DNA of 35,642 nucleotides from Candidatus Omnitrophota bacterium (lineage in GTDB: Bacteria > Omnitrophota > Gorgyraeia > Zapsychrales > Fredricksoniimonadaceae), in assembly GCA_031386565.1 (NCBI GenBank), contig JANNCL010000267.1:1-35642 (forward strand). The letters run 5' to 3'. A model generated the notes under the pieces. That model ran no database searches, was not told where the DNA came from, and saw nothing but the letters and a program-made list of their open reading frames with translations. Both the position numbers and the translations under genes were made by a program. How positions within the stretch are numbered: the stretch's first letter is position 1; each line of letters opens with the position of its first letter. Of this stretch, positions 498 to 17,567 are shown in pieces.

Positions 498-814
498 AAA
501 ATGAATTCATTATTGTTTTAGTGACTGCGAAAGACCGCACGCAAGGCAAGCGTATCGCTAAGGGATTATTGAAAGACAAGCTGATCGCTTGCGCGAACAT
601 TGTCGGCGGGATCGAGTCTATATTTCTCTGGAAGGGCAAGATCGATAGCGCCAAAGAAGTGTTGTTGATCTTAAAAACAAAAAAGAGTTTGTTCAATAGG
701 GTGGCGGATAAGGTAAAATCCTTGCATAGCTATGAAACCCCGGAGATCATTGCCATGCCGATCCTCGCGGGTGAACAAAAATATCTGCAGTGGATAAAGG
801 AGAGTGTATGTTAA
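494..814 (+). CDS. cutA: Divalent-cation tolerance protein CutA
   Basis: 106 aa with CutA1-family motifs: IVLVT, LIACANI, ESIFLWKGKI, LILKT, HSYETPEII. Confidence 0.85.
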   Translation: MKNEFIIVLVTAKDRTQGKRIAKGLLKDKLIACANIVGGIESIFLWKGKIDSAKEVLLILKTKKSLFNRVADKVKSLHSYETPEIIAMPILAGEQKYLQWIKESVC

Positions 815-1326
815 AGAGATACAAGATCGCGGTATTGATCGCGGCGTTATTGCTGCCGGTGGCCGTTTTTGCCATGGGACAACGCCCAGAAAAGCCCGGT
901 CCTATGGTCGGGAAAGCTGCGCCGGAATTTGTGTTGGACACGCTTTATAATGGGACGAAAAAATTATCCGATGCCCGCGGGGATAAAAAAGCGGTGTTAT
1001 TCTTTTGGGCCACATGGTGTCCGCATTGCCATGAGCAATTGATCAGGCTTAATAACAGCATTGAATCATTGAAACGCCGGGGCTTTGTGGTGATCTTAGT
1101 CGACTTGGGGGAAAGCCCCAATGATGTTAAAGCGTTCCTGAAATTCAATACGATCTTTTTGGATTCCTTTGTAGATCCCGACAGCAGCCTGCAGGACATT
1201 TACCAGGACGTTGGAGTTCCTACTATCTATTATCTGGATGAGAATGGTGTGATTGTTTCCGAACAGCATGAGTTCGAAGGGAATATTGATGCGTTGTTTG
1301 GCGGATCGGATAAGAAGAAAAAGTAA
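808..1326 (+). CDS. Secreted TlpA/ResA-like thiol-disulfide oxidoreductase (thioredoxin fold)
   Basis: Signal peptide KIAVLIAALLLPVAVFA and the WCPHC active site inside FWATWCPHC. AGGAG lies just upstream of ATG 808, so the ORF-track start at 790 is less likely. Confidence 0.85.
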   Translation: MLKRYKIAVLIAALLLPVAVFAMGQRPEKPGPMVGKAAPEFVLDTLYNGTKKLSDARGDKKAVLFFWATWCPHCHEQLIRLNNSIESLKRRGFVVILVDLGESPNDVKAFLKFNTIFLDSFVDPDSSLQDIYQDVGVPTIYYLDENGVIVSEQHEFEGNIDALFGGSDKKKK

Positions 1327-1371: not shown

Positions 1372-2841
1372 TTAGCGGTAACTGATCTTATTTTTTAAGT
1401 CTGGCTGTACATTCGCTTCGAATTTCAATTTGGTGATGAACGCGCCGATCTTTTCATTGCGTTTTTGGGCGCTGACCATGTTCTTGAAATCTTCCTTGTC
1501 CATATCGAATTTCTTTTCATCAATGGCTTCTTTGCTGCTTAAATAAGCGATCGCCGGCCCTTGGCTGGTCTCGATCACGCCGCTTAATTTATTGGCATCA
1601 TTGATGGAGTAGCTGTCCTGCTGGAATTCCGCGATGATGCCTGGCGCATTGATATATTCGCCGCGGGCAAATGATGTTGTCTCATCAAGCTTCAGGCTGA
1701 GTTCTGTGGCAATTGTCTTGAAGTCTTTGGTCTTTAAACCCTCTTTGATGGTGTTAAGCGTTGTTTCGGCTTTGGCTTTTGCAGCGGCATAGCCTTTATC
1801 ATTAAGGGCGGCATCTTTTACTTTCGCGCTGATGCTAGCAAATTCAGGGATGCCGCTTGCTTTCTTTTCTTTGATCTTCACGATCTGCCAGCCGTCCGGT
1901 GCTTCCATCGGGCTTGTGACCTCGCCTGTTTTTAAGGCAAAGATCTTATCGACGAATTCCGGTGACCAGGCGAAGGTAAGTAAGGGTTGTTCTTGGGCAA
2001 AAAAGCCGCTTTCTTTAAGGGCTTGCTGATGCTTGGCCGCGATGGCCGCAAAGTCTGCTTTGGGTGTTAATTCATGCGCGATGGCAACCGCGGTATCTTT
2101 GATGGCTTGTTTCTGTTTAGCATCTGCTTTTTCAGGATACAAAATATGCACATACTGCACATTCACCATGGGCGGTTCCCGGAAGGATTCTTTATGTTGT
2201 GCGAAGAATTTTGTGACGTCGTCGTCCGTAATAGTGGCGTCTTTGGAAAAATCGGCAGGCGTAAAAAGCACGTAGCTTAATTTTATCTTTTCATTGCGTT
2301 TAATATATTCCTGTTTTAGCTCTGCATCGGTAAAAGTGATATTGCCACCGACTTGATCAAGCAATTTACGGACGATGATGGAACGTCTGGCGCCTGCTTC
2401 GAAATCTTTGACCTTGCGGTCGAATATCCCCTGGGATTGGACGATATTCTCATAAATACTCTGGTCGAATTTACCGGCGCTTTGGAAGAAGGGCAATTGC
2501 GCGATATAATCCACGACTTCTTTGTCGGTAGCCGTGATATTACGTTTTTGAGCTTCGCGGCTGAGGATAATGCGGGTCCAAGCTTCACGTTCTAAGTCCA
2601 GTTGCTGTCCCATCTTAAAGAAACGGTCGCCATAGGAGATGATGGCTTGATCGCGGCTGTCTAAATAGGCGCGTTCAAACTCACGCAGCGGGACGGATTT
2701 TCCATACACTTTGCCAGCGGTGTTGATATTATTATCCAGGCGGTAGGCGGTCCCAAAGACCCCGAACGATAAAATATCAATGATCGCGACAGCCCATAAA
2801 ATTTTACGAGATACCCCTTTGTGGCGCAGAATGCTTAGCAT
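1372..2841 (-). CDS. ppiD: PpiD-like membrane-anchored periplasmic chaperone / parvulin-type PPIase
   Basis: N-terminal TM anchor (ILWAVAIIDILSFGVFG), a SurA-N-like region, then a degenerate parvulin-like region (PPMVNVQYVHIL...GWQIVKI). Length and architecture fit PpiD. Confidence 0.7.
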   Translation of the reverse strand: MLSILRHKGVSRKILWAVAIIDILSFGVFGTAYRLDNNINTAGKVYGKSVPLREFERAYLDSRDQAIISYGDRFFKMGQQLDLEREAWTRIILSREAQKRNITATDKEVVDYIAQLPFFQSAGKFDQSIYENIVQSQGIFDRKVKDFEAGARRSIIVRKLLDQVGGNITFTDAELKQEYIKRNEKIKLSYVLFTPADFSKDATITDDDVTKFFAQHKESFREPPMVNVQYVHILYPEKADAKQKQAIKDTAVAIAHELTPKADFAAIAAKHQQALKESGFFAQEQPLLTFAWSPEFVDKIFALKTGEVTSPMEAPDGWQIVKIKEKKASGIPEFASISAKVKDAALNDKGYAAAKAKAETTLNTIKEGLKTKDFKTIATELSLKLDETTSFARGEYINAPGIIAEFQQDSYSINDANKLSGVIETSQGPAIAYLSSKEAIDEKKFDMDKEDFKNMVSAQKRNEKIGAFITKLKFEANVQPDLKNKISYR

Positions 2842-2953: not shown

Positions 2954-5900
2954 ATGCTTCGGAAGCTAGGGTGCCTCTTTTTAACTTTTTTACTATTGCC
3001 ATTTTCCCAACTACAAGCGGATCAAATAGTTCTGCCTGTCCCCGGAACCATGGTACGGCTAAGCCCTGCCTATGAGCCTCCGTTATTAAAAGGTATTAAG
3101 GTCCATCCTGAGAATCCGTTTCGTTTCGAATTCGTTTTGGATCGTGGCGATCAAAAATCTACCGTAGGGGCGGATCGTGATCCGCCCTTTTTAAAAGAAG
3201 AATCCAAAAAATTGATCAAATATTTCCTAGCCGCCTTAACCACCCCCGAAAAAGATCTCTGGGTCAACTTAAGCCCCTACGAAAAAGACCGCATCGTGCC
3301 GGAGAGTTTTGGCCAGACTGAGATGGGCCGCGACCTTTTAGCGCAAGACTATATTTTAAAGCAAATTACGGCAAGTTTGGTTTATCCTGAAGGGGATATT
3401 GGTAAAAGGTTTTGGAAAAAGGTATATGAGTCAGCCGGGAATAAAAATGTTCCTGTTAATACGTTCAATAAAGTATGGATCATGCCTGATAAGGCGGAGG
3501 TGTATGAGAATACAAAGACCGGCACGGCGTATATTGTGCGGTCCAGTCTAAAAGTATTGACTGAGCAAGACTATCTTGCCACCAACAAAAACACAACCGT
3601 AGGGGCCGATCTTGTGTCGGCCCGCCATGCCGGGCGGACACAAGGTCCGCCCCTACGAAATACCGATAATTCCAAGATCATACGTGACCTCGTCATCCCA
3701 GAATTAACCAAAGAAATAAACCAAGGCCAAAACTTCGCCCAATTACGTCAAGTTTACAACAGCCTGATACTTGCCACCTGGTACAAAAAGAAGATCAAAG
3801 ACAGCATCCTCTCACAAGTATATGCCGATAAGAACAAGATCAAAGGCACAGAATACGATCAAAGCATTATTTCCCCTCCCCTTGTGGGAGGGGCCAGGGG
3901 AGGGGTACGATCCCAAGGACAAAAAGACGAGTCCCCCCTCCCTAACCCTCCCCACGATGGGGGAGGGAAGAATGACGTCGAAGCCATCTACGCCCGCTAT
4001 TTACAAGCCTTCAAAAAAGGCGCCTACAATTATATCAAAGATACTGACTTGCCTAACGGCCGGACAGTACCTACGAAATATTTCTCCGGCGGGGCGCGAT
4101 TTGATATGGCGATGATGACGACAACGGAAGAGTTAAGTGATCTACATCTTAGCCAAGCGGTGATCGTTCAGGCAAATATGGAACAAGCCATTTTTAAGGA
4201 ACCTGATGCTGCCATGTCGCATGACGAATCAATGCATAAATTACTTCTTGAGGCTATGTTATGGTATATGAACAGAGATCCTGAGCTGTCTCAACAAATG
4301 GTGGTTGCTCATCATGAGGAAGATCTTGTAAGAAAGTTTTTTCTTGGCAGAAAGGTTTTAAATGTTGCGCCGGAAGAAATTTCTTTTTCGGATATTCTAT
4401 TGGAGCAGAATATCATGACGGATATGAGGCAAAAAGGTATCGATGCAAGGGCTCTAGCTCCCGTAAACAAGCATCCACTTTGGGAAAAAGAAAGTTTCTA
4501 TCAAGGAGTGGTGGAAGATATGCATATGATCAATGCTGACACATTTGATGATATTGTCATTGCTAGATTATTTGATCCTGATTATTGGGAAACTACTGTA
4601 GGGAAGCAATTAGGCCAGACGGTAGAACAAAGAAGGGCTCTTTATCCCAGGATCGCAAAAGAATTAAAACGGGTACTTAGAGATAAAGGCAGGCTTTTTA
4701 TGCTTTCTATGGACGGCAATCCGTATTTATTCGAAGCTTTAAGGCACGAAGGGTTTAAGGTTTTTTCTTTAAAGTTAGATAAGAACAATCAGTTATTTGG
4801 CACGCTTTTAATTAACGACAAAACCATTATAGAATACGGAAATGGTGTTGGAAGAACAGACTTCGGCAGTAATCAAGCCATGCTTTCGCTTGCGGACAGT
4901 ATGGCATGGGGGGATGCGAAGGAAGATGCGGGGGTATATTTCAGGCTTAAGGCATTTTTGGATAAGGATGATCTTAAAGATCTGCAGCAATATGATCCGC
5001 AACAGCGCGCGCAATTGATCGCGCTTTGGTTGAAGGTGCGTTGGGCGAAAGCATTTCCTACGGATCATTGGCGATTATTAGAATCCGTCAGAAGCATCAT
5101 CGTAAATTATTTGTTAAAGAATACGTTATTGACGCACAGGGAACGCAATGAGGGGGCGATAGGGGAATTCGCTAAGTTTGGGATGCCCCGCTTTCAAGCG
5201 GAGATGCTGCTGCATTGGGCAGAGGATGTATTTAATGGCAAGTCGGATGCTCGATTCACGTTCCATCAATGGGCGGTGGCGTCCCATGTAGGGGATGCGC
5301 AAAATGCCGTGGATAAATTTGGTGTCATTGTTGGGCTTAATGAAGAGCAGAAAAATGAATTGATCCAGTATCTTTTAGGACAGAGTGAAAGGCTGTACCG
5401 TGATGCCGAAGAACAACAAAAGTTCGACGCTATTTGGCTGGCAGTCAAGTACAAATGGTCCGAGGATTCTTTTAAGCGGTTCATGAATGAACATATGATG
5501 ACGCATATCGATCCCGAAGCGCGTCAGATCTTAAGGCAGGAGGCTTTGGAAGATCTCCCGATGCAGGGACGGGAGAGGTTATATACCCGTCAACAGATCG
5601 CGGACATGGCCAATGATGCGGGCGTGCTTTGGAATCGTTGGGAGTGGATTAAGGCCAGGCAGCCTGCGATCGAGCGGATGGCGGCGCCGTTTAATGGTGT
5701 TGAAGCAAGAAAACGGGCCATTATTTTTGGAAGATTGCTGGAGCTTAATCTAGCACAACAGAAAGACGTAGAGAGTTATCTTTTAGGCGCCCTCGAAAGG
5801 GTATTTGTTGACAATACAGAGCAGCAAAAATTTGATGCTGTTTGGCTGGCAGTGAAATATGGATGGACAGGAGAATCGCTGGTTCGGTTCGTTCAAAATA

Positions 5901-8900
5901 AAATAATTTTCCACATCGATCCAAAGGCTGCGGGATTCTTAAGGAGGGAAGTCCCAGATCACCTTAGGATCTTCCGTTCTGAGAAGTCTGGCGGCTTCTC
6001 TGATGGGGAGATCTTCGCTATGGCTCATGATGCCGGGTTACTTTATGAAACGCGTTGGGAGGTAAAGCATATTAATCAGGAGTCTCAACACGTGATGCAG
6101 GTCATTGAAGAGAAGCTGGCCAAATCTGTCCCGTTAACCCGCGCGCCTAAGATCGAACCGGAGGTCACACAAAGGATCCAGCAGGCCGAGCAAAAGGCCG
6201 ACCTGTTTTTCGAAGATTTGCATGCGTTAAGCACCCTGCCTCCGGCGCAGTTCGTAGAAGAGTTATTGCAGAAGATGGTTATCCAAGAGCCTAATTTTGA
6301 GCGTATCCTTTCAGGGCAGGCGGCCTTGCCGGATAATTGGCAGGACGATGTTGCTGCGTTCGCGAAACGTCTGGATCAACGCTGGCAAGCGTGGGGTGCA
6401 GATGGGATATCCATGCAGCAAAGATTTGGCTCGATCTATTCAGTGATGGCCTTGAGGATCGGAGCCGATTTATTTGCTACTTACGAGCAGGCGGTATTGA
6501 CACACGCATGGTTTTTTGCTTTTGTTTCAGCTGCTCCTCCGGAGGCTATGGTTGAAGCATTGCACATGATCACATCCTCGCATATCATCCATTTAAGGCT
6601 TCATGGGATGCATCCATATTCAGATAAGTTGTTTGAAAGGCCAGTGAGTTTAGATGTTGATACTCTTTATGGAAGAAAGGGCAGGAGTGTTGGTGTTTTA
6701 AGAAATTACTTGGAAGCATTCAAGCCCCTAAGGTCAAAGGTATTTGACCAACGTTTTGAATATGATTTTTTATGGGGTCTGGTGATGGGATCAGACCCAT
6801 CCCCACTTGATCCCAGATATGCGGAGAATCATTCTAACGATCAGGTTAATGTTCTTAAGCAGGGCAAGTCTGATGATGAATTCTTTAGGAATTCATTAAG
6901 AGAAGCTGTCGAACAGCTCGACATTGATCCGCGAGAGTTTGAATTGTTGTTATTGGAAGCGTTAGCTATTTCAGATCAAGAATGGGAAGCGATGGGCTAT
7001 GTTTCTCCTTATAAAATTAAGATGGGACATGAAATCAGTGATTTTTACATTGCTGCCGCGCAGAAAAAACATGTTCTACCCACTGGGCCTGTATCCTTAA
7101 TGAGCCCAGATCCTGGATTGCTTGAATTCAGAGGGGTCTTTTTAAAGAACTACAATAAGGTTTTCGAAGGAAGGGAAAGTTTAAGGGACTACTACATAGA
7201 ATCCTGGTCCGCGCTGTACCCCAGTCTGGCGGGAATAAAAGATCGTGCTCAGACTGCCGACGATAAGGCGGTTTCTGAGAGTTCATGGTTGGATCAGATC
7301 ATTAAGGATCCCAAGATTGACAAGATCAGTGAAGGTGTTCATGTGCGTCGGATCACTTTTTTGAATACGGCTTTGGTTATGGAAATATGGTTATCCGATA
7401 CACGGCAACATGGGATAGACGCTGTTGTTGTCAATGAAGGATTCCCATCTGCTAAAAAGAAAGAATTCAGGAATATCCCTAGACGCTTGGTTTTTGACAA
7501 TAGCGCTGGTATTGAAAAGCGAAAAAGCATGGTGTATACGCTTATGGATTTCTTAGCCGGTGAAATTCTTGTGCAGCGCATCGCGGCCAATCACAAAGCT
7601 TCCAGAGAACTAGAGATCCAGCATAAGGATGAGTATTTGGATGAGAAAGTAAGTGCGGATCTTCAAGGACTTATTGGATTTGGGAAGTTTATTAAGACGA
7701 TTGTTTATATGATTTTTGGCAAAACAGGTTTAATGTACGAGAATCTTTTAAATACAAAATCGAGGTTTTTAAAAGCGGTTTTACGCTTAAATGATACGGA
7801 TTTTTTAAAACAGAAGCCGCAGCTGGGACGAACTTATCAGGTTGTATTTCGTGAGCAGTATTATGGCAAGATATCTATTTCGATGGATGATCGAGATCAG
7901 TTTTATGTTGTTTTGATAGAACAAATGTACGGTCGACCATTATGGAGGCGTATCCCCATAGCACAATATGATCATTTATCGGATATTATAAAAGTTACCC
8001 TTGATTCTATAGAGCAAGAGATCGGGCAGACAGCGGTTCCAGGACAGGGGGTAGATCGGGCTATGGTACAAGGTCAGGGGGCCGACCGTATTAGAAGAGG
8101 ATTGTTGGTGAGTATTGCTTCATCACTATCGTTTTCTCCCCAAGCGGCTGTGATCGAATTTCCTACATATGATGAAGAAAGGGTTACGGGGCAAGTTCCC
8201 GGTTATGTACAAAGCGTGATCGGCAGATGGTTCCCCAGGTATAAAATTATCCTTACACAGGGTGGGGATCAGATTTTATGGGATGAAAGAACCAAAACGC
8301 TGCGTTTTAACAGGGAGCGTTTTGAGGGAATGAACGATGATCAGCTATTTGCGGCCTTGGCTGCAGATACGGCATATTATGGAGTGAAACTTTTTGCTAA
8401 AGATAATGACGCGCTGATGCAAATGGGTTTTATAGGTGCGGAGACGATCGCGCGGGCAAAGAAAATGCTTGTTTTTGACCATCTAGTGTCAGATGGCAAG
8501 ATACCTGTTACTTCAACAATGCAGGAGGAGCAGCTGCTTAGCAAGGCTTTTCTGGCCTTGATCGAACAGCGTCATAAGCTGGTGGATTTTGAAGGGTACA
8601 GCCTTGAAAAGGCCACGCTTGAAAAACCGCTTGTGGATAATAACGGTTTTTTGCAGCAGAGGGTTGTAAGCATTGCTCTGGAAAACTTGAATACGCGCTT
8701 AAAGAAACGCGTTTTAGCAAAGGTTGTCATGGATCTTCAGAGCGGAAAGAATAAAGTTACTTTCATGCCGATGGAAGATAGTGCTCAAATCAGTTCCATT
8801 GACTCAAAGCGCGGGGGTATTGATCTTACTAGTGACAAGATGGATTTAAAGCTTAAAAGCGATGGTGGGGCTATCCGGTTCAAGATGGATCCGGCTCAAT

Positions 8901-9019
8901 TAAAAGCGTTGCAAGAAGCTCCGGGTTTGATCCCTTCTATTGTTAACATGCGCACTTTGCCCGCAGGACAGGAAGGCATCAACATCTTAAAGTTGTTTTT
9001 AGGGGTTCAGGCTCCTTAG
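2954..9019 (+). CDS. Giant secreted modular protein, paralog 1 (2021 aa): conserved N-module + orphan ~1500-aa cargo + conserved C-terminal tail; function unknown
   Basis: Uninterrupted 6066-nt ORF with signal peptide MLRKLGCLFLTFLLLPFSQLQA. The N-module aligns with 11889-14906 (45/58 identical over KYFLAALT..YPE) and with 35400-35642 (36/39 identical over LPVPGTMV..LD+G). The tail GGIDLTSDKMDLKLK..GLIPSIV aligns with the paralog 2 tail. Confidence 0.9.
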   Translation: MLRKLGCLFLTFLLLPFSQLQADQIVLPVPGTMVRLSPAYEPPLLKGIKVHPENPFRFEFVLDRGDQKSTVGADRDPPFLKEESKKLIKYFLAALTTPEKDLWVNLSPYEKDRIVPESFGQTEMGRDLLAQDYILKQITASLVYPEGDIGKRFWKKVYESAGNKNVPVNTFNKVWIMPDKAEVYENTKTGTAYIVRSSLKVLTEQDYLATNKNTTVGADLVSARHAGRTQGPPLRNTDNSKIIRDLVIPELTKEINQGQNFAQLRQVYNSLILATWYKKKIKDSILSQVYADKNKIKGTEYDQSIISPPLVGGARGGVRSQGQKDESPLPNPPHDGGGKNDVEAIYARYLQAFKKGAYNYIKDTDLPNGRTVPTKYFSGGARFDMAMMTTTEELSDLHLSQAVIVQANMEQAIFKEPDAAMSHDESMHKLLLEAMLWYMNRDPELSQQMVVAHHEEDLVRKFFLGRKVLNVAPEEISFSDILLEQNIMTDMRQKGIDARALAPVNKHPLWEKESFYQGVVEDMHMINADTFDDIVIARLFDPDYWETTVGKQLGQTVEQRRALYPRIAKELKRVLRDKGRLFMLSMDGNPYLFEALRHEGFKVFSLKLDKNNQLFGTLLINDKTIIEYGNGVGRTDFGSNQAMLSLADSMAWGDAKEDAGVYFRLKAFLDKDDLKDLQQYDPQQRAQLIALWLKVRWAKAFPTDHWRLLESVRSIIVNYLLKNTLLTHRERNEGAIGEFAKFGMPRFQAEMLLHWAEDVFNGKSDARFTFHQWAVASHVGDAQNAVDKFGVIVGLNEEQKNELIQYLLGQSERLYRDAEEQQKFDAIWLAVKYKWSEDSFKRFMNEHMMTHIDPEARQILRQEALEDLPMQGRERLYTRQQIADMANDAGVLWNRWEWIKARQPAIERMAAPFNGVEARKRAIIFGRLLELNLAQQKDVESYLLGALERVFVDNTEQQKFDAVWLAVKYGWTGESLVRFVQNKIIFHIDPKAAGFLRREVPDHLRIFRSEKSGGFSDGEIFAMAHDAGLLYETRWEVKHINQESQHVMQVIEEKLAKSVPLTRAPKIEPEVTQRIQQAEQKADLFFEDLHALSTLPPAQFVEELLQKMVIQEPNFERILSGQAALPDNWQDDVAAFAKRLDQRWQAWGADGISMQQRFGSIYSVMALRIGADLFATYEQAVLTHAWFFAFVSAAPPEAMVEALHMITSSHIIHLRLHGMHPYSDKLFERPVSLDVDTLYGRKGRSVGVLRNYLEAFKPLRSKVFDQRFEYDFLWGLVMGSDPSPLDPRYAENHSNDQVNVLKQGKSDDEFFRNSLREAVEQLDIDPREFELLLLEALAISDQEWEAMGYVSPYKIKMGHEISDFYIAAAQKKHVLPTGPVSLMSPDPGLLEFRGVFLKNYNKVFEGRESLRDYYIESWSALYPSLAGIKDRAQTADDKAVSESSWLDQIIKDPKIDKISEGVHVRRITFLNTALVMEIWLSDTRQHGIDAVVVNEGFPSAKKKEFRNIPRRLVFDNSAGIEKRKSMVYTLMDFLAGEILVQRIAANHKASRELEIQHKDEYLDEKVSADLQGLIGFGKFIKTIVYMIFGKTGLMYENLLNTKSRFLKAVLRLNDTDFLKQKPQLGRTYQVVFREQYYGKISISMDDRDQFYVVLIEQMYGRPLWRRIPIAQYDHLSDIIKVTLDSIEQEIGQTAVPGQGVDRAMVQGQGADRIRRGLLVSIASSLSFSPQAAVIEFPTYDEERVTGQVPGYVQSVIGRWFPRYKIILTQGGDQILWDERTKTLRFNRERFEGMNDDQLFAALAADTAYYGVKLFAKDNDALMQMGFIGAETIARAKKMLVFDHLVSDGKIPVTSTMQEEQLLSKAFLALIEQRHKLVDFEGYSLEKATLEKPLVDNNGFLQQRVVSIALENLNTRLKKRVLAKVVMDLQSGKNKVTFMPMEDSAQISSIDSKRGGIDLTSDKMDLKLKSDGGAIRFKMDPAQLKALQEAPGLIPSIVNMRTLPAGQEGINILKLFLGVQAP
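3164..3187 (+). repeat. Single REP-like unit (GTAG + 8-bp hairpin) inside the paralog 1 CDS
   Basis: GTAG GGGCGGAT CGTG ATCCGCCC: perfect 8-bp stem with a 4-nt loop. It is translated as TVGADRDPP. Confidence 0.7.
3599..3656 (+). repeat. 58-nt REPIN-like inverted doublet (two hairpins) read in frame inside the paralog 1 N-module
   Basis: GTAG GGGCCGAT CTTGT GTCGGCCC GCCATGCC GGGCGGAC ACAAG GTCCGCCC CTAC. The outer ends are GTAG/CTAC and the two loops are complementary. It encodes VGADLVSARHAGRTQGPPL. Confidence 0.85.
3873..3967 (+). repeat. C-tract/G-tract triple-hairpin cluster inserted in frame in paralog 1 only
   Basis: Three arm pairs: CCCCTCCC (3873-3880) / GGGAGGGG (3886-3893) with loop CTTGT; GGGAGGGG (3898-3905) / CCCCTCCC (3935-3942); CCCTCCCC (3946-3953) / GGGGAGGG (3960-3967). 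It encodes SPPLVGGARGGVRSQGQKDESPLPNPPHDGGG. Paralog 2 is 24 codons shorter here. Confidence 0.8.
5336..6070 (+). repeat. Internal tandem duplication (~136-aa unit, 2 copies) within the paralog 1 cargo
   Basis: Unit 1 starts at LNEEQKNELIQYLLG (5336) and unit 2 at LNLAQQKDVESYLLG (5744). 22/37 residues are identical over EQQKFDA[IV]WLAVKY..HIDP.A, and both units end with DAG[VL]L...RWE[WV]K. Confidence 0.8.
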
Positions 9020-11888: not shown

Positions 11889-14800
11889 ATGCGGAAAACG
11901 ATATTTAGCCTAGTTTTGGTCAGCTTCTTGATCAGTAACATCAATATTCCTTTGCTTAGGGCAGGGGAAGTTGTTGTGCCCATCATGCCCAAGCCGGGCA
12001 CCATGGTTTCTTTAAGTCCTATCTTTACCCCGGCTTATCTTAAAGGGATTGTTATTCATCCCGACAATGCCCTGCAATTCGACTTTTTGATCAACAAAGG
12101 CGATGGAAATTTAAACACTCAAGAAAAGAATCAGGAATATACTAAACTAGTCAAATACTTCCTGGCGGCACTCACCGTCCCGGATCAAGACCAATGGGTG
12201 AACTTAAGCCCGTATGAAAAAGACCGCATTATTAAAGATGACTTCGGCAAGACCGAAATGGGCCGCGACCTTTTGGGTCAAGATTATTTGTTAAAGCAGA
12301 TCACCTCATCTTTAATGTATCCCGAATCTGGTTTAGGCAAAAATTTCTGGGATAAAGTCTATGCCAAAGCCCAAGAAGAATTTGGCAACACCAATATCCC
12401 CGTCAACACATTCAACAAAGTCTGGATCGTGCCAGATCAAGCCATTGTTTATGAAAGCGGCAATATTGCGTATGTAGGGCGCAGTCATTTGAAAGTGATG
12501 TTGGAAGAAGATTATCTTGCCATCAACAAAAATAAATCCGTAGGGGAGGACCTTGTGTCCTCCCGCCATGCCGGGCCGATACAAGATCGGCCCCTACAAA
12601 ATACCGATCAAGCACAAATAATCCGTGAACTCATCCTCCCCGAATTAGAAAAAGAAGTCAACCAAGGCAAAAATTTCGCCCAATTACGCCAAGTTTTTAG
12701 CGGCATGATCCTAGCCACTTGGTATAAAAAAGCATTGAAAGAATCTTTGTTAGCCAAAATTTACGCAGATAAAAATAAAACTAAAGGAACGGGATATACA
12801 AAAAGCATTCTCAACCGAAGCCAACCTGGGAAACAACCAAACGACATCGAGCTTGTGTACCAGCAATACCTCCAAGCCTTTAAGAAAGGCGTATACAACT
12901 ATATTAAAGAGGACACAGACAAATACACACATCAACCCATTCCCAGAAAATATTTTGCGGGTGGGGTGAATGGCATTCCAAAAAATGTTCTAGAAGTACG
13001 CCAAGGCACAAGCCCGGCAATGACGGCGGAAGTAAACACCCTTGATGCCGCGCAAGTTAGTTTAGATAGTAAAAAAGCAGATGCGGCGATGAATATTCAA
13101 GAAATACAATCTTACAGCCAATGGGTAGTTCGGATATTGACGACCGGTGTACCGTTGACATTTACAACTGTTTCAGCTCAGGCAGCACAATTTCAAGAAT
13201 TTGTATCAACATATCCTTGGTTAGCAACGGGTTCTGCAATAGGGCTGACGGCTGCAACATGGTTTGGGTATTATTTGTGGAGTATGTTTCATACGTTAAA
13301 GGGAATGGGGCGTGCTTATGACCAGAAAATAGTGAGCAAGGAACAATTTCGTGCGTGGCTAGATGAATATCTTCCCACACAAAGCGACGCAATATTGATT
13401 GGCTTATTGAACCACCGACAGATGGCAGTTCGGGAAAAATCTGCGGAAATATTAGTGCGTTTGAAAACTAGAAGGGCTTCTCAAGAAGAGGTGATCCAAG
13501 CATTGTTGGGAAGACTTGGCGATTATGATCCTGTTCATCAGAGGGCATTATTAGGATTGAAGGAATTAGGAGTAAGCCAAGAACTCCTATTGAGCGAATA
13601 TCATGTCATTGTCTGGAATGCAGATAACTCAACATTTATGCGCTTGGGAGGAGACTCCGAACGCTCCTCTTTTGAGTCTGTTAACAAAGCCATCAAATTT
13701 TTTAGTGAAATAGGTGAACAAGGCAGGGATGAATTAGTTGCTATAGGTAAAAATCATCCAAGTGAAGGTGTTCGAAAGCGAGCGGGAGAAATTGTATCCA
13801 GGATAGTATGGGATTATGGGACATGGGGTTCAACTTATACTTTGGATGATGTCGAAATGGCAATAAAAATGTTAGGAAGAATGGGGTCGGTAGGGTTGTA
13901 TGAATTATCCAGAATAAAAGGGGAAGATCTTGACCGCAGGGTTATTGAAATGGCGAAAAATCAAATAGACGCGGCGATGGGGGAGAATTTGAGTTATAAG
14001 GGCAAGGACTTTGAAATCAGCTCGCAAGGACTATTGATTGGCACAATATATTCAATTTATTTTCTTTTACGTGAAAGGGCTATTGCTTCGAAGCATCCAA
14101 CGATTGCATTTGACCTAGATGGAACGATTGCTTTTTGGAACGGGAGTGAATATCTGATAAGACCCGGAATCGAAGAACAAATCCGTAAGCTTAAACAAAG
14201 GGGTTTTCGTATAGTTTTATGGACGTCAGCACCAAGAGAGCATGTTCGTGTTAACTTTATTGAAAAGAATTCTGCAATTGCTAATTTTTTTGATTTAGTT
14301 ATTTCCAGAGAAAGTTTCAGCCCTTTAATAGAAAATGAGCAAGCAATGAAAGGCGTTTATGCAAGATTTATGAAGATTCCAGTAAGTGATTTTATGGAAA
14401 GAATTCATAGAACATATTTTGCGACTAACAATGATTGGGGATTTAAGGATTTTTTGTTGCTGGGATACAAGTTCTTAGTTGATGATACACCGCTCAAGAT
14501 TTTAAAAGGTCAGCCTTATCCTCTAATCCAAGAGTACAAGATGAGGTACATGCAGGCGGGATTTTTCTACACTAATTCTCAAGGAGTGAGTCTGGGTGAC
14601 GATTATCCGATAGGAAATCTAGCTGATACGATTCAAGAAAAAATTGAGCAAGCTGACAAATCATTTGGTGGTGGTACTGATGTTGATGTGGCTGGAAATG
14701 TATTAGATGCGGCGATGAAAGATCCCGGCGGTATTGACATGAACTCCGCTAATTTGGATTTGCAGATTAAGCGTGATGGTAAAGGGGTGCCTTTGCCGCT

Positions 14801-14906
14801 TTCTCAGCAAGATATGGCGCTGTTGTCTCGTATTGAAGGATTTGTTCCGCGTATCATTGCAATCAAACCTGCCTCTTCATTGCCGATCTTTAGTAAAATA
14901 CAGTAA
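11889..14906 (+). CDS. Secreted modular protein, paralog 2 (1005 aa): conserved N-module + TM segment + HEAT-like repeats + HAD-superfamily phosphatase domain + conserved tail
   Basis: Signal peptide, then an N-module homologous to paralog 1. Hydrophobic helix WLATGSAIGLTAATWFGYYLW. HEAT-like units (HRQMAVREKSAEILVRL, HPSEGVRKRAGEIVSRI). HAD motifs: FDLDGT (14109-14126), LWTSA, VDDTP (~14478-14492). Tail: GGIDMNSANLDLQIK..GFVPRII. Confidence 0.9.
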   Translation: MRKTIFSLVLVSFLISNINIPLLRAGEVVVPIMPKPGTMVSLSPIFTPAYLKGIVIHPDNALQFDFLINKGDGNLNTQEKNQEYTKLVKYFLAALTVPDQDQWVNLSPYEKDRIIKDDFGKTEMGRDLLGQDYLLKQITSSLMYPESGLGKNFWDKVYAKAQEEFGNTNIPVNTFNKVWIVPDQAIVYESGNIAYVGRSHLKVMLEEDYLAINKNKSVGEDLVSSRHAGPIQDRPLQNTDQAQIIRELILPELEKEVNQGKNFAQLRQVFSGMILATWYKKALKESLLAKIYADKNKTKGTGYTKSILNRSQPGKQPNDIELVYQQYLQAFKKGVYNYIKEDTDKYTHQPIPRKYFAGGVNGIPKNVLEVRQGTSPAMTAEVNTLDAAQVSLDSKKADAAMNIQEIQSYSQWVVRILTTGVPLTFTTVSAQAAQFQEFVSTYPWLATGSAIGLTAATWFGYYLWSMFHTLKGMGRAYDQKIVSKEQFRAWLDEYLPTQSDAILIGLLNHRQMAVREKSAEILVRLKTRRASQEEVIQALLGRLGDYDPVHQRALLGLKELGVSQELLLSEYHVIVWNADNSTFMRLGGDSERSSFESVNKAIKFFSEIGEQGRDELVAIGKNHPSEGVRKRAGEIVSRIVWDYGTWGSTYTLDDVEMAIKMLGRMGSVGLYELSRIKGEDLDRRVIEMAKNQIDAAMGENLSYKGKDFEISSQGLLIGTIYSIYFLLRERAIASKHPTIAFDLDGTIAFWNGSEYLIRPGIEEQIRKLKQRGFRIVLWTSAPREHVRVNFIEKNSAIANFFDLVISRESFSPLIENEQAMKGVYARFMKIPVSDFMERIHRTYFATNNDWGFKDFLLLGYKFLVDDTPLKILKGQPYPLIQEYKMRYMQAGFFYTNSQGVSLGDDYPIGNLADTIQEKIEQADKSFGGGTDVDVAGNVLDAAMKDPGGIDMNSANLDLQIKRDGKGVPLPLSQQDMALLSRIEGFVPRIIAIKPASSLPIFSKIQ
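12540..12597 (+). repeat. 58-nt REPIN-like inverted doublet read in frame inside the paralog 2 N-module (same site as 3599-3656)
   Basis: GTAG GGGAGGAC CTTGT GTCCTCCC GCCATGCC GGGCCGAT ACAAG ATCGGCCC CTAC. Both stems are perfect. It encodes VGEDLVSSRHAGPIQDRPL. Confidence 0.85.
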
Positions 14907-16350: not shown

Positions 16351-16504
16351 CCCGCATTTAGCAAAGGCAAAATGCGCCTTCAGGGGCGATTGTCGCAACT
16401 TGTTGCGATATGAGCGGTTATCCAGACAAGCGAACAAACCGTTGCTTGCAACAAATTGTGCTAACGTCATCGACGCTAGGACAGTTTCTATTGCAAAATG
16501 CGGG
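16351..16504. repeat. 154-nt segment bracketed by 14-nt inverted repeats with internal palindromes (MITE-like or structured leader)
   Basis: CCCGCATTTAGCAA (16351-16364) versus TTGCAAAATGCGGG (16491-16504), 13/14 complementary. Internal palindromes: TCGCAACTTGTTGCGA (16393-16408) and GTTGCTTGCAAC (16441-16452). A proximal partner AAATGCG lies at 16370-16376. Confidence 0.4.
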
Positions 16505-16538
16505 ACAAATCAACAAATATTTAAGGTTAGGTTCTTTT

Positions 16539-17420
16539 ATGAAGCATATTACAATAAAATCTCCCGCTAAATTGAATTTGGTTTTAGATATATTAGGTAA
16601 GCGTCAGGATGGTTTCCATGAATTGCGGACCATCTTTGAGCGTATCGATCTGCATGATTCTATCACGTTAAAAAACCGGGCGGACGGGAAGGTCAAGGTA
16701 ATCTGTGCGCACCCGCATGTGCCTAAGGGGCCTACTAATTTGGTGGTTAAAGTCGCACAAAGACTCCGGCAGGAGTTTGGGATCACTCAAGGGGTCACCA
16801 TTGAGATCCAAAAACGCATCCCGGTTGCGGCAGGTCTGGCCGGAGGGTCAAGCAATGCGGCTTCCGTTTTGATGGGGCTAAACTGCTTGTGGCAGTTGAA
16901 GTTATCGCAAGAGCAACTCGTTTTGCACGCTTCCGCGATTGGTTCGGATGTGGCGTTCTTTATTCACGATACCCCCTATGCTTTAGGCACCGGCCGGGGT
17001 GAGCAGATCAAGGTTTTAGGGATCCGCACCAAACTATGGCATGTGCTTGTGACCCCGAAGGTTAAGGTGTTGACTAAGGATGTTTTTAAGGCCTTAAATG
17101 CTAAACCGACAGGGGGTAAAAAGCGGTTGACATATAATAGGGATAATGTTAGTATTTTGCTTCCCTTTTTGAGGGAGTGTAAGCTTGTCCAGATCGGGCA
17201 GTCTTTGGCCAATGATCTGGAGCCGGCCATTTTGTCTTTGCGGCCAGATTTTATTTTGCTAAAGGAAAAATTAAAAGGGGGGAATCCTCTTGGTGTATGT
17301 TTTTCCGGAAGCGGTCCGTCGGTATATGCGTTGGCAAGTTCCAAAGCGCATGCACTGGCGATCAAAGCAAAATTTGATAAGCGTTACGTTCAGGTTTTTG
17401 TTGTTGGAACATTACTGTAG
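16539..17420 (+). CDS. ispE: 4-diphosphocytidyl-2-C-methyl-D-erythritol kinase
   Basis: IKSPAKLNL, the GHMP-kinase motif PVAAGLAGGSSNAA and GSGPSVYAL. The track start at 16410 adds 43 non-homologous residues, so ATG 16539 is preferred. Confidence 0.9.
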   Translation: MKHITIKSPAKLNLVLDILGKRQDGFHELRTIFERIDLHDSITLKNRADGKVKVICAHPHVPKGPTNLVVKVAQRLRQEFGITQGVTIEIQKRIPVAAGLAGGSSNAASVLMGLNCLWQLKLSQEQLVLHASAIGSDVAFFIHDTPYALGTGRGEQIKVLGIRTKLWHVLVTPKVKVLTKDVFKALNAKPTGGKKRLTYNRDNVSILLPFLRECKLVQIGQSLANDLEPAILSLRPDFILLKEKLKGGNPLGVCFSGSGPSVYALASSKAHALAIKAKFDKRYVQVFVVGTLL

Positions 17421-17423
17421 TAT

Positions 17424-17454
17424 CATGGCGGGACGACACAAGGTCGTCCCCTAC
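17424..17454 (+). repeat. Intergenic single REP-like unit (half of the 58-nt element)
   Basis: CATGGC GGGACGAC ACAAG GTCGTCCC CTAC. It has the same spacer fragment, the same ACAAG loop and the same CTAC end as the right half of the in-CDS doublets, with a different but self-complementary stem. Confidence 0.8.
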
Positions 17455-17493: not shown

Positions 17494-17567
17494 TGCCCGG
17501 TGGTGTAAAGGTAGCACACGAGAATTTGGATCTCGTTGTCAAGGTTCGAATCCTTGCTGGGCAACCA
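17494..17567 (+). tRNA. tRNA-Gln (anticodon UUG), CCA encoded
   Basis: Manual cloverleaf. Acceptor TGCCCGG/CTGGGCA. D-arm GTGT-AAAGGTA-GCAC. Anticodon arm CGAGA-ATTTGGA-TCTCG (TTG at positions 34-36). 4-nt variable loop. T-arm CAAGG-TTCGAAT-CCTTG. Discriminator A, then CCA. Confidence 0.9.

Follow-up and report, generated by a model that had tools for sequence, protein, structure and literature searches.

An in-frame GTAG-tagged REP doublet in a variable loop of a conserved Omnitrophota protein module

Background

Palindromic repeats that carry a GTAG or CGTC tag form super-families of repetitive extragenic palindromes (REPs), which have been defined in more than 80 species (Di Nocera, De Gregorio & Rocco 2013, PMC3733652). 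Intragenic members of both, mostly dimers encoding 20-30 amino acids (aa), have already been documented and are most numerous in Opitutus terrae, of the PVC (Planctomycetes-Verrucomicrobia-Chlamydiae) superphylum, and in Rickettsia conorii, as Rickettsia palindromic elements (RPE) (PMC3733652). In paralogous ASPIC/UnbV proteins of O. terrae, REPs of three families are found at the same position (PMC3733652). The subject of this report is a 58-nt sequence (copy 1, positions 3599-3656) in a 35,642-nt stretch of DNA, referred to here as the window, from a Candidatus Omnitrophota bacterium (GenBank assembly GCA_031386565.1, contig JANNCL010000267.1, positions 1 to 35,642 of the forward strand). 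Its structural identity as a GTAG-tagged REP doublet with REPIN (REP doublet forming hairpin) architecture holds: further copies, including an intergenic one, are present in the window, and the same unit flanks genes for REP-associated tyrosine transposases (RAYTs) in other bacteria, which bears out the identification made in an initial annotation of the locus. Copy 1 is probably a selfish doublet of a RAYT-associated family that was tolerated in a variable loop of its host protein and then copied between paralogues. Omnitrophota is placed in the PVC superphylum.

The O. terrae families GTAG-17, GTAG-18 and GTAG-19 (PMC3733652) resemble copy 1 in having a GTAG tag beside a GC-rich stem-loop, in forming inverted pairs and in being inserted in frame. 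They likewise encode ~15-30 aa rich in G, P, A and R, strike paralogues at the same position and have their remaining copies just downstream of open reading frames (ORFs). The stem and loop sequences differ, however, and the host phylum of copy 1 lies outside the PMC3733652 survey. In addition, the O. terrae insertions are scattered over many unrelated genes, whereas those of Omnitrophota occupy three loops of one protein family and belong to many repeat families. Six peptide fragments from the translated frames of the element do not occur in the supplementary files of PMC3733652, and the copy 1 family is probably not among the intragenic families listed in that paper.

Similarities also exist to the REPIN-RAYT system of Pseudomonas fluorescens (Bertels & Rainey 2011, PMC3116915) and to the E. 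coli REP/bacterial interspersed mosaic element (BIME) system with TnpA-REP (PMC3479197, PMC8266576), in which inverted units surround a short spacer. GTAG stands at the foot of the hairpin in these systems as well, and a Y1/HUH gene is bracketed by units (here in loci L001, L042, L051, L076 and L079). In contrast, classical REPINs lie outside genes, tend to have longer spacers and have been portrayed as specific to a lineage and inherited vertically, whereas the unit described here is nearly identical across phyla. A further difference is that a cognate RAYT was not found in this lineage (window and fetched Omnitrophota contigs).

RPE are reportedly inserted in frame in protein-coding genes, as Ogata and colleagues are said to have described in 2000. 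Like copy 1, they are palindromic repeats that are in frame and translated at positions sparing the protein fold. RPE are cited in both PMC3733652 and PMC10969869. The short intragenic RPE-4 and RPE-6 of R. conorii are CGTC-tagged (PMC3733652), unlike the GTAG-tagged element described here, and RPE-1 is a longer palindromic insertion. RPE also differ in being confined to Rickettsia-like alphaproteobacteria and in entering many unrelated genes.

No earlier report of such repeats in Omnitrophota was found in the literature. Three aspects go beyond PMC3733652: the gathering of many repeat families at three fixed loops in a single protein family that spans the phylum, the magnitude of the hairpin excess in these loops over other coding DNA, and the near-identity of the unit across phyla.

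The REP doublet and its copies in the window

The REP sequences of the window are as follows.

3599-3656, no strand assigned: REP doublet, copy 1; GTAG-GGGCCGAT-CTTGT-GTCGGCCC-GCCATGCC-GGGCGGAC-ACAAG-GTCCGCCC-CTAC
3599-3629, + strand: unit a of copy 1; GTAGGGGCCGATCTTGTGTCGGCCCGCCATG
3626-3656, - strand: unit b of copy 1; GTAGGGGCGGACCTTGTGTCCGCCCGGCATG
12540-12597, no strand assigned: REP doublet, copy 2; spacer GCCATGCC; read as VGEDLVSSRHAGPIQDRPL; in ORF 11889-14906
17424-17454, - strand: single REP unit of the same family as copy 1; GTAGGGGACGACCTTGTGTCGTCCCGCCATG; intergenic
3164-3187, + strand: variant single GTAG-tagged hairpin; GTAG GGGCGGATC gt GATCCGCCC; in frame, loop 1 of the gene 1 module

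The sequence and anatomy of copy 1 read exactly as first annotated. Each REP unit is a short imperfect palindrome with an 8-bp GC-rich stem and a 5-nt loop, and the central CATG of copy 1 is common to units a and b. Both doublets of the window have the REPIN layout (inverted units, GTAG outward and a common central GCCATGCC). Copy 1 lies within ORF 2954-9019 (+ strand, 2021 aa) and is read in frame as the peptide VGADLVSARHAGRTQGPPL, as had been claimed; its translation is presumed from the open frame. Because two of its three frames are free of stop codons, in either orientation, and because the doublet with its flanking C and G makes a 60-nt palindrome equal to 20 codons, the doublet can be read through.

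Copy 1 is also the longest inverted repeat of the window, with gapless 30-nt arms (3598-3627 and 3628-3657) that are 87% complementary. When folded as RNA, it is predicted to form one long hairpin with a minimum free energy (MFE) of -46.8 kcal/mol (shuffles: mean -22.2, standard deviation [sd] 3.0; z = -8.25), an energy matched by none of 200 dinucleotide shuffles. The description of the element as a double hairpin stands in that two 8-bp hairpins with complementary loops can form, but copy 1 is a near-perfect palindrome for which these and the single long hairpin are alternative folds. The loops CTTGT and ACAAG are complementary because the two small hairpins are the halves of one palindrome.

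No direct repeat that could represent a target-site duplication surrounds either doublet (...ACAACC/GTAG...CTAC/GAAATA for copy 1; ...AAATCC/GTAG...CTAC/AAAATA for copy 2). A miniature inverted-repeat transposable element derived from an insertion sequence was rejected as a candidate, as the combination of terminal inverted repeats and a target-site duplication is not present. An intrinsic (rho-independent) terminator was also rejected because no U-run follows the hairpin: copy 1 is followed by GAAATACCGAT and the intergenic unit by ATATCGTATTT. An Rfam scan of the whole window gave a tRNA as the only match.

The unit consensus is GTAG GGGNNGAY CTTGT RTCNNCCC GSCATG, and a 26-nt unit pattern with three mismatches allowed has 0 chance matches expected in the window. 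Five units and one variant, all with GTAG, are present at four sites in three separate regions of the 35-kb window, and the search for additional copies yielded a second doublet, an intergenic single unit and a variant unit. ORF 16410-17420 ends in a stop codon 4 nt before the intergenic unit (17424-17454), which lies 40 nt upstream of tRNA-Gln (17494-17567). The variant hairpin encodes (T)VGADRDPP and has no counterpart in ORF 11889-14906. Both doublets and the variant are inside long conserved ORFs, and only the 17424-17454 unit is intergenic. The statement that REPs are by definition extragenic was too strong, since intragenic GTAG and CGTC dimers are known and an extragenic location is typical of REPs but not absolute (PMC3733652).

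Copy 2 is located at the same loop position of a paralogous module as copy 1. The two doublets differ at 9 of 58 positions, all of them in stems and all pair-preserving (four compensatory double changes and one G-T to G-C change), and their spacers are identical. It is the DNA or RNA hairpin, rather than the peptide, that is kept between the copies. Identity is 53/58 in an inverted alignment and 49/58 in a direct one; the identical asymmetric spacer favours direct alignment over an inversion between the copies.

The modules of gene 1 (ORF1, 2954-9019) and gene 2 (ORF2, 11889-14906) are 61% identical over 310 conserved columns. Among 176 relatives of ORF1, ORF2 ranks only 151st; 150 homologues from other genomes are nearer to ORF1, and the 15 closest ORF1 homologues listed are without the element. 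The element common to ORF1 and ORF2 is therefore not an old inheritance, and ancient shared ancestry of the two copies was rejected. Instead, the most likely source of copy 2 is an event inside this genome, namely gene conversion over a short tract or a second insertion at the same site. A candidate tract was delimited by similarity at synonymous positions.

3548-3790, + strand: candidate gene-conversion tract, matched by 12489-12731 around copy 2

Third-codon-position identity of the paralogues is 0.85 in the element and 0.62 in the 61 codons on its flanks (3548-3598 and 3657-3790), compared with 0.38 for the remaining module. This profile suggests that a patch of ~240 nt may have passed between the paralogues.

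The REP family and its transposases in other genomes

Contigs of one genome per species were scanned with the pattern GTAGGGGNNGAYCTTGTRTCNNCCCG (unit form GTAG-GGGNNGAY-CTTGT-RTCNNCCC-G). At least 118 loci from many phyla match this pattern, compared to ~0.3 chance matches expected (an estimate made here from the information content of the pattern and the size of the database). The matches listed include Chloroflexia, Planctomycetales, Firmicutes, Atribacterota, Opitutia, Bacteroidota, Actinomycetota and Gammaproteobacteria as well as Ca. Uabimicrobium amorphum and three Omnitrophica metagenome-assembled genomes (MAGs); isolates among them are Sedimentibacter saalensis (Firmicutes), Microbulbifer zhoushanensis (Gammaproteobacteria) and Ca. 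Uabimicrobium amorphum. All 132 units from other genomes carry GTAG, although the search pattern required it. Of 137 units compared, 135 have complementary bases at the two free stem positions, where seven pair types occur. The stem covariation is family-wide and extends to intergenic copies of other phyla. Among the matches listed, 62% of units lie in stop-to-stop frames of fewer than 150 codons, versus 15% of random positions; the REP family is therefore mostly extragenic.

A RAYT-type ORF is found directly beside a unit, or between two inverted units, in at least five loci.

L001:7234-7841, RAYT locus
L042:5207-5992, RAYT locus
L051:232-908, RAYT locus
L076:2774-3201, RAYT locus
L079:3121-4090, RAYT locus

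The ORFs of L042, L051 and L079 were scanned, and all three score above the cut-off for Pfam Y1_Tnp. All three also match the NCBIfam entry "REP-associated tyrosine transposase" (E-values: 2e-16 to 2e-29), L079 again above the cut-off. The ORFs of L001 and L076 were assigned as RAYTs by homology to these three. The HUH motif and one Tyr are invariant in the four aligned RAYTs (L051, L042, L001 and L079), and the RAYTs of the five loci are only ~25-58% identical to each other. Unit-flanked RAYT genes occur in Chloroflexia, Atribacterota and Microbulbifer loci. Over many phyla, a single REP unit and its RAYT are nearly invariant, and a REP hairpin conserved in this way sits uneasily with the common view of REPIN-RAYT pairs as lineage-specific and inherited vertically.

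The largest gene cluster common to the REP-bearing loci encodes UvrA/ABC ATPases and not a transposase. In two loci, a REP unit lies within ~3 nt of the end of a UvrA-like ORF (L102:1002-3867, Atribacteria; L060:89-2936, unclassified bacterium). These echo the association of REPs with uvrA and repair genes that was noted earlier (PMC3733652).

The host proteins

Both doublets are carried by genes with the same general architecture. A different repeat family is present further along the module of the first.

2954-9019, + strand: host gene 1, 2021 aa; signal-peptide-like N terminus, N-module at ~2954-4100, long variable part, C-terminal GGIDL motif
11889-14906, + strand: host gene 2, 1005 aa; distantly paralogous N-module at ~11889-13000, same C-terminal motif
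3868-3975, + strand: C-run/G-run hairpins of a different repeat family, in frame in loop 3; PPLVGGARGG...PLPNPPHDGGG; CCCCTCCCCTTGTGGGAGGGG...

The N-module (~370 aa) has 1326 homologues, most of the taxon-named ones from Candidatus Omnitrophica/Omnitrophota, and the best database match of the gene 1 module is only 59% identical. No family was assigned in a Pfam scan of the 2021-aa ORF, and a Foldseek search of the module model against the PDB gave no match at E <= 0.001. When 26 homologues are aligned, the scaffold proves very conserved and three loops hypervariable, with copy 1 in loop 2. In an AlphaFold2 model of the module (mean predicted local distance difference test [pLDDT] score 68), pLDDT falls below 50 at residues 189-211 (the insert), 45-49 (loop 1) and 285-315 (loop 3), and the helices and strands around the 189-211 insert are modelled well. 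The insert is in frame, in a low-pLDDT segment and in a hypervariable alignment region, and its position is predicted to be structurally permissive.

Different proteins have very different C-terminal regions attached to the module. A C-terminal GGID[LM]... motif is common to both ORFs (8813-8953 and 14727-14867; BLASTP E-value: 1e-7) and follows the module directly in homologue P0091. With its signal-peptide-like N terminus, module, diverse middle and common C-terminal motif, the host family has what looks like a secretion or sorting architecture. The hairpin stretch at 3868-3975 (MFE -58.6 kcal/mol over 108 nt) has no counterpart in ORF 11889-14906, and sequence of this C-run/G-run type also fills loops of L162 and L127.

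Palindromic repeats in the loops of homologous modules

Loop 2 was compared in 102 database homologues and 80 metagenomic loci. It is either plain, ~21-22 aa long (EKHEGIQSxQxQxKDTNQLGSQ; about a quarter to a third of homologues), or longer, in which case it consists of translated palindromic repeats. About ten palindromic repeat families occupy the loops in frame. The copy 1 family is present in loop 2 of P0016, P0034, P0112 and L153. Other loop 2 families are GTAG-tagged (VGVGSKPT..RAGLEPAPT, VGARHAVPL, VGAGLAPAL and VGAQFIAPT) or (C/T)GTCAT-tagged (VIASEAKQS, VILSEAKDL..DSSATPQND, VIPAKAGIQ and SFPNASVGNP), and further contents are PGDMALAVSP and C-run/G-run hairpins. The mean folding energy per nt is -0.33 kcal/mol for loops of at least 24 aa, -0.15 for short loops and -0.17 (sd 0.047) for controls (90-nt windows of the conserved module), and 38 of 80 loop 2 sequences are below the control 5th percentile. 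The same holds for loops 1 and 3.

The density of strong hairpins (-30 kcal/mol or better) was determined in 77 module loci (449 kb) picked only via conserved peptides. The three loops hold 17 of the 31 strong-hairpin windows.

Three loops, 22.5 kb: 0.4-1.0 strong hairpins per kb
Conserved module and rest of the same ORFs, 231 kb: 0.01 per kb
Rest of the loci, 196 kb: 0.06 per kb

Relative to the other 231 kb of these ORFs, strong hairpins are thus enriched ~40-100-fold in the loops, and relative to the remaining locus sequence ~7-17-fold. No strong hairpin is located where the module meets the variable part, and the 159 kb of downstream ORF sequence contain 0-2 peaks. The loop inserts are dispersed repeats, since they match non-ORF sites and other loops in other loci with 90-100% identity over 25-41 nt. 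Modules with a scaffold identity of 86-89% hold unrelated loop contents.

Among the Omnitrophica MAG loci, the unit is found in the same module loop in L009, L050 and L112, as well as in L007 and L111, and is intergenic, just past ORF ends, in L053, L067, L072, L074, L083, L084 and L115. The Omnitrophica MAG loci from the REP-pattern search have the unit in no gene other than the module. In L007 and L111 the doublet is in the other open frame and has a different spacer, and the L153 copy is also read in a different frame; in L112, L009 and L050, units lie ~25 nt apart with GTAG facing inward. The L007/L111 and L112/L009/L050 insertions are, to judge by these arrangements, separate events. No conserved target motif was found at the insertion point. 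Overall, many homologous modules have plain loops or unrelated repeats, the peptide is not conserved and stem complementarity is kept. These findings are the reverse of the pattern (no further copies, with the peptide conserved and the stems lost) that the initial annotation had named as evidence against a REP.

The plain loop GGTATTCAATCCAAAAAAGCACAAACTCAAGATAC of L182, L192 and L186 aligns as DNA with the GTCATTCCCGCGAAAGCGGGAATCCAGGACAC hairpin unit of the close relatives L183, L158 and L129; the plain loop 2 may itself be a decayed ancient REP.

One apparent module match, L054, was rejected as such and is really a REP cluster between a rhodanese-like ORF and a tetratricopeptide repeat (TPR) ORF. 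At L054:1396-1480, a GTAG unit adjoins a CGTCATTGCGAGG-type unit and the frame is open from the rhodanese-like ORF into the TPR ORF. REP-mediated fusion of the two genes or a read-through artefact may account for this arrangement.

Other features of the window

At 1326-1367, a perfect inverted repeat of 15 bp is flanked by A- and T-runs (AAAAAAGCAGGGTTC ... GAACCCTGCTTTTTT) and lies between the convergent ORFs 790-1326 (+ strand) and 1372-2841 (- strand). From its sequence, it looks like a bidirectional intrinsic terminator.

Proposed model and alternative explanations

A model for the origin of the doublet can be outlined. The 58-nt sequence would be one copy of a dispersed GTAG-tagged REP family, with its units inverted head-out around the common CATG, and the doublet would be selfish, non-autonomous DNA. 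RAYTs (HUH/Y1 REP-associated tyrosine transposases) are thought to mobilise such hairpins as single-stranded DNA, and mobilisation by a RAYT in this genome is presumed by analogy. The doublet would have landed in a hypervariable, low-pLDDT loop of the conserved N-module of secreted giant proteins, where its read-through product (~20 aa rich in Gly, Pro, Arg and Ala) would be tolerated by the protein. A short gene-conversion tract or a repeat insertion at the same site would have given rise to the second copy, and the hairpin would be maintained via compensatory changes or exchange with other REP copies, not via the peptide. Gene conversion between the paralogues and the lack of a host function are presumptions of this model.

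Several observations weigh against parts of the selfish-doublet model. RAYTs were searched for with phmmer and tblastn, using an IS200 TnpA query and three RAYTs recovered here, in the window, the Omnitrophica MAG loci and 80 metagenomic module loci. None was found in the 35-kb window or in ~550 kb of Omnitrophota-type contigs, and mobilisation in the Omnitrophota lineage is for this reason argued by analogy. A profile search with the RAYT alignment gave 5373 matches; none of the best 120 of these 5373 is named Omnitrophota. The rise in third-position identity around the doublets (Fisher p = 8e-4) refers to a tract, 3548-3790, that was picked after seeing the identity profile, and the flanks of the tract are only ~80% identical, so the conversion would not be recent. 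No pair of filled and empty sites was found that would give the insertion boundaries; even the most similar pairs (86-90%) have loops that are completely different. Finally, the excess of hairpins in the loops is not easily explained by tolerance alone.

The last point bears on an alternative, adaptive loop diversification, in which the three loops would be preferred landing pads, owing to targeting or positive selection, where REP palindromes are captured and swapped. This alternative is unlikely but has several observations in its favour: in 77 loci chosen regardless of hairpins, the three loops account for 17 of the 31 strong-hairpin peaks, ~10 palindrome families are present in the loops, modules as similar as 86-89% have unrelated contents, this REP family is seen in no other gene of the sampled Omnitrophica MAG loci, and lineages differ in which of the two open frames and unit arrangements they use. 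Palindromes of many families (GTAG-tagged, (C/T)GTCAT-tagged and others) would then enter the loops again and again, pass between paralogues and replace one another, and mobile hairpins might serve as in-frame cassettes that vary the loops of a large secreted-protein family, through host exploitation or strongly site-biased capture and not as neutral passengers. Low pLDDT is, however, the sole indication that the loops are exposed, and the insertion point has no conserved target motif. Spread among paralogues within a genome (the window; L007/L111; L050/L112) also makes a few events yield higher counts, the plain ~21-22-aa loop is present in about a quarter to a third of homologues, and O. terrae REPs enter many unrelated genes without evident function (PMC3733652).

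It is far less probable that the hairpin is a functional nucleic-acid structure, such as a pause site, an RNase site, an internal terminator or attenuator, or a hotspot for N-module shuffling. The great stability of the fold (-46.8 kcal/mol), the compensatory stem changes between copies 1 and 2 and the joining of the module to very different C-terminal regions would agree with such a role. However, many homologues have a plain, weakly folding loop (~-0.06 to -0.2 kcal/mol per nt; control mean -0.17) and others have unrelated palindromes, no U-run is found 3' of the hairpin, and the element has no Rfam family. The junction between the module and the variable part is free of strong hairpins, with 0-2 peaks in 159 kb, and the stem covariation is a property of the whole family, including intergenic copies of other phyla. 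Pausing, RNase processing, module shuffling and domestication, all raised in the initial annotation, thus found no support: the structure is absent or replaced in many homologues and does not occur at the module boundary. The remaining reading, that the palindrome is due to chance or protein-level selection, or that the ORF is a pseudogene or annotation artefact, draws support only from the stop-free translation of the element and is effectively refuted. No shuffle folds as well, identical units are intergenic and occur in many phyla, the peptide is not conserved (with the family read in a different frame in L007, L111 and L153), and the ORF is intact, with a module that has 1326 homologues.

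Significance

These results have consequences for the annotation of Omnitrophota proteins, in which stretches of ~20 aa rich in Gly, Pro, Arg and Ala can be translated REPs and not protein features; hairpin-rich "hypervariable loops" should likewise be recognised as REP elements. One protein family takes up palindromic repeats at three fixed loops far more than other coding DNA does. Should targeting or selection underlie this preference for the loops, mobile hairpins would here be creating protein variability in nature, and the module loops would also be a tractable place for studying REP insertion.

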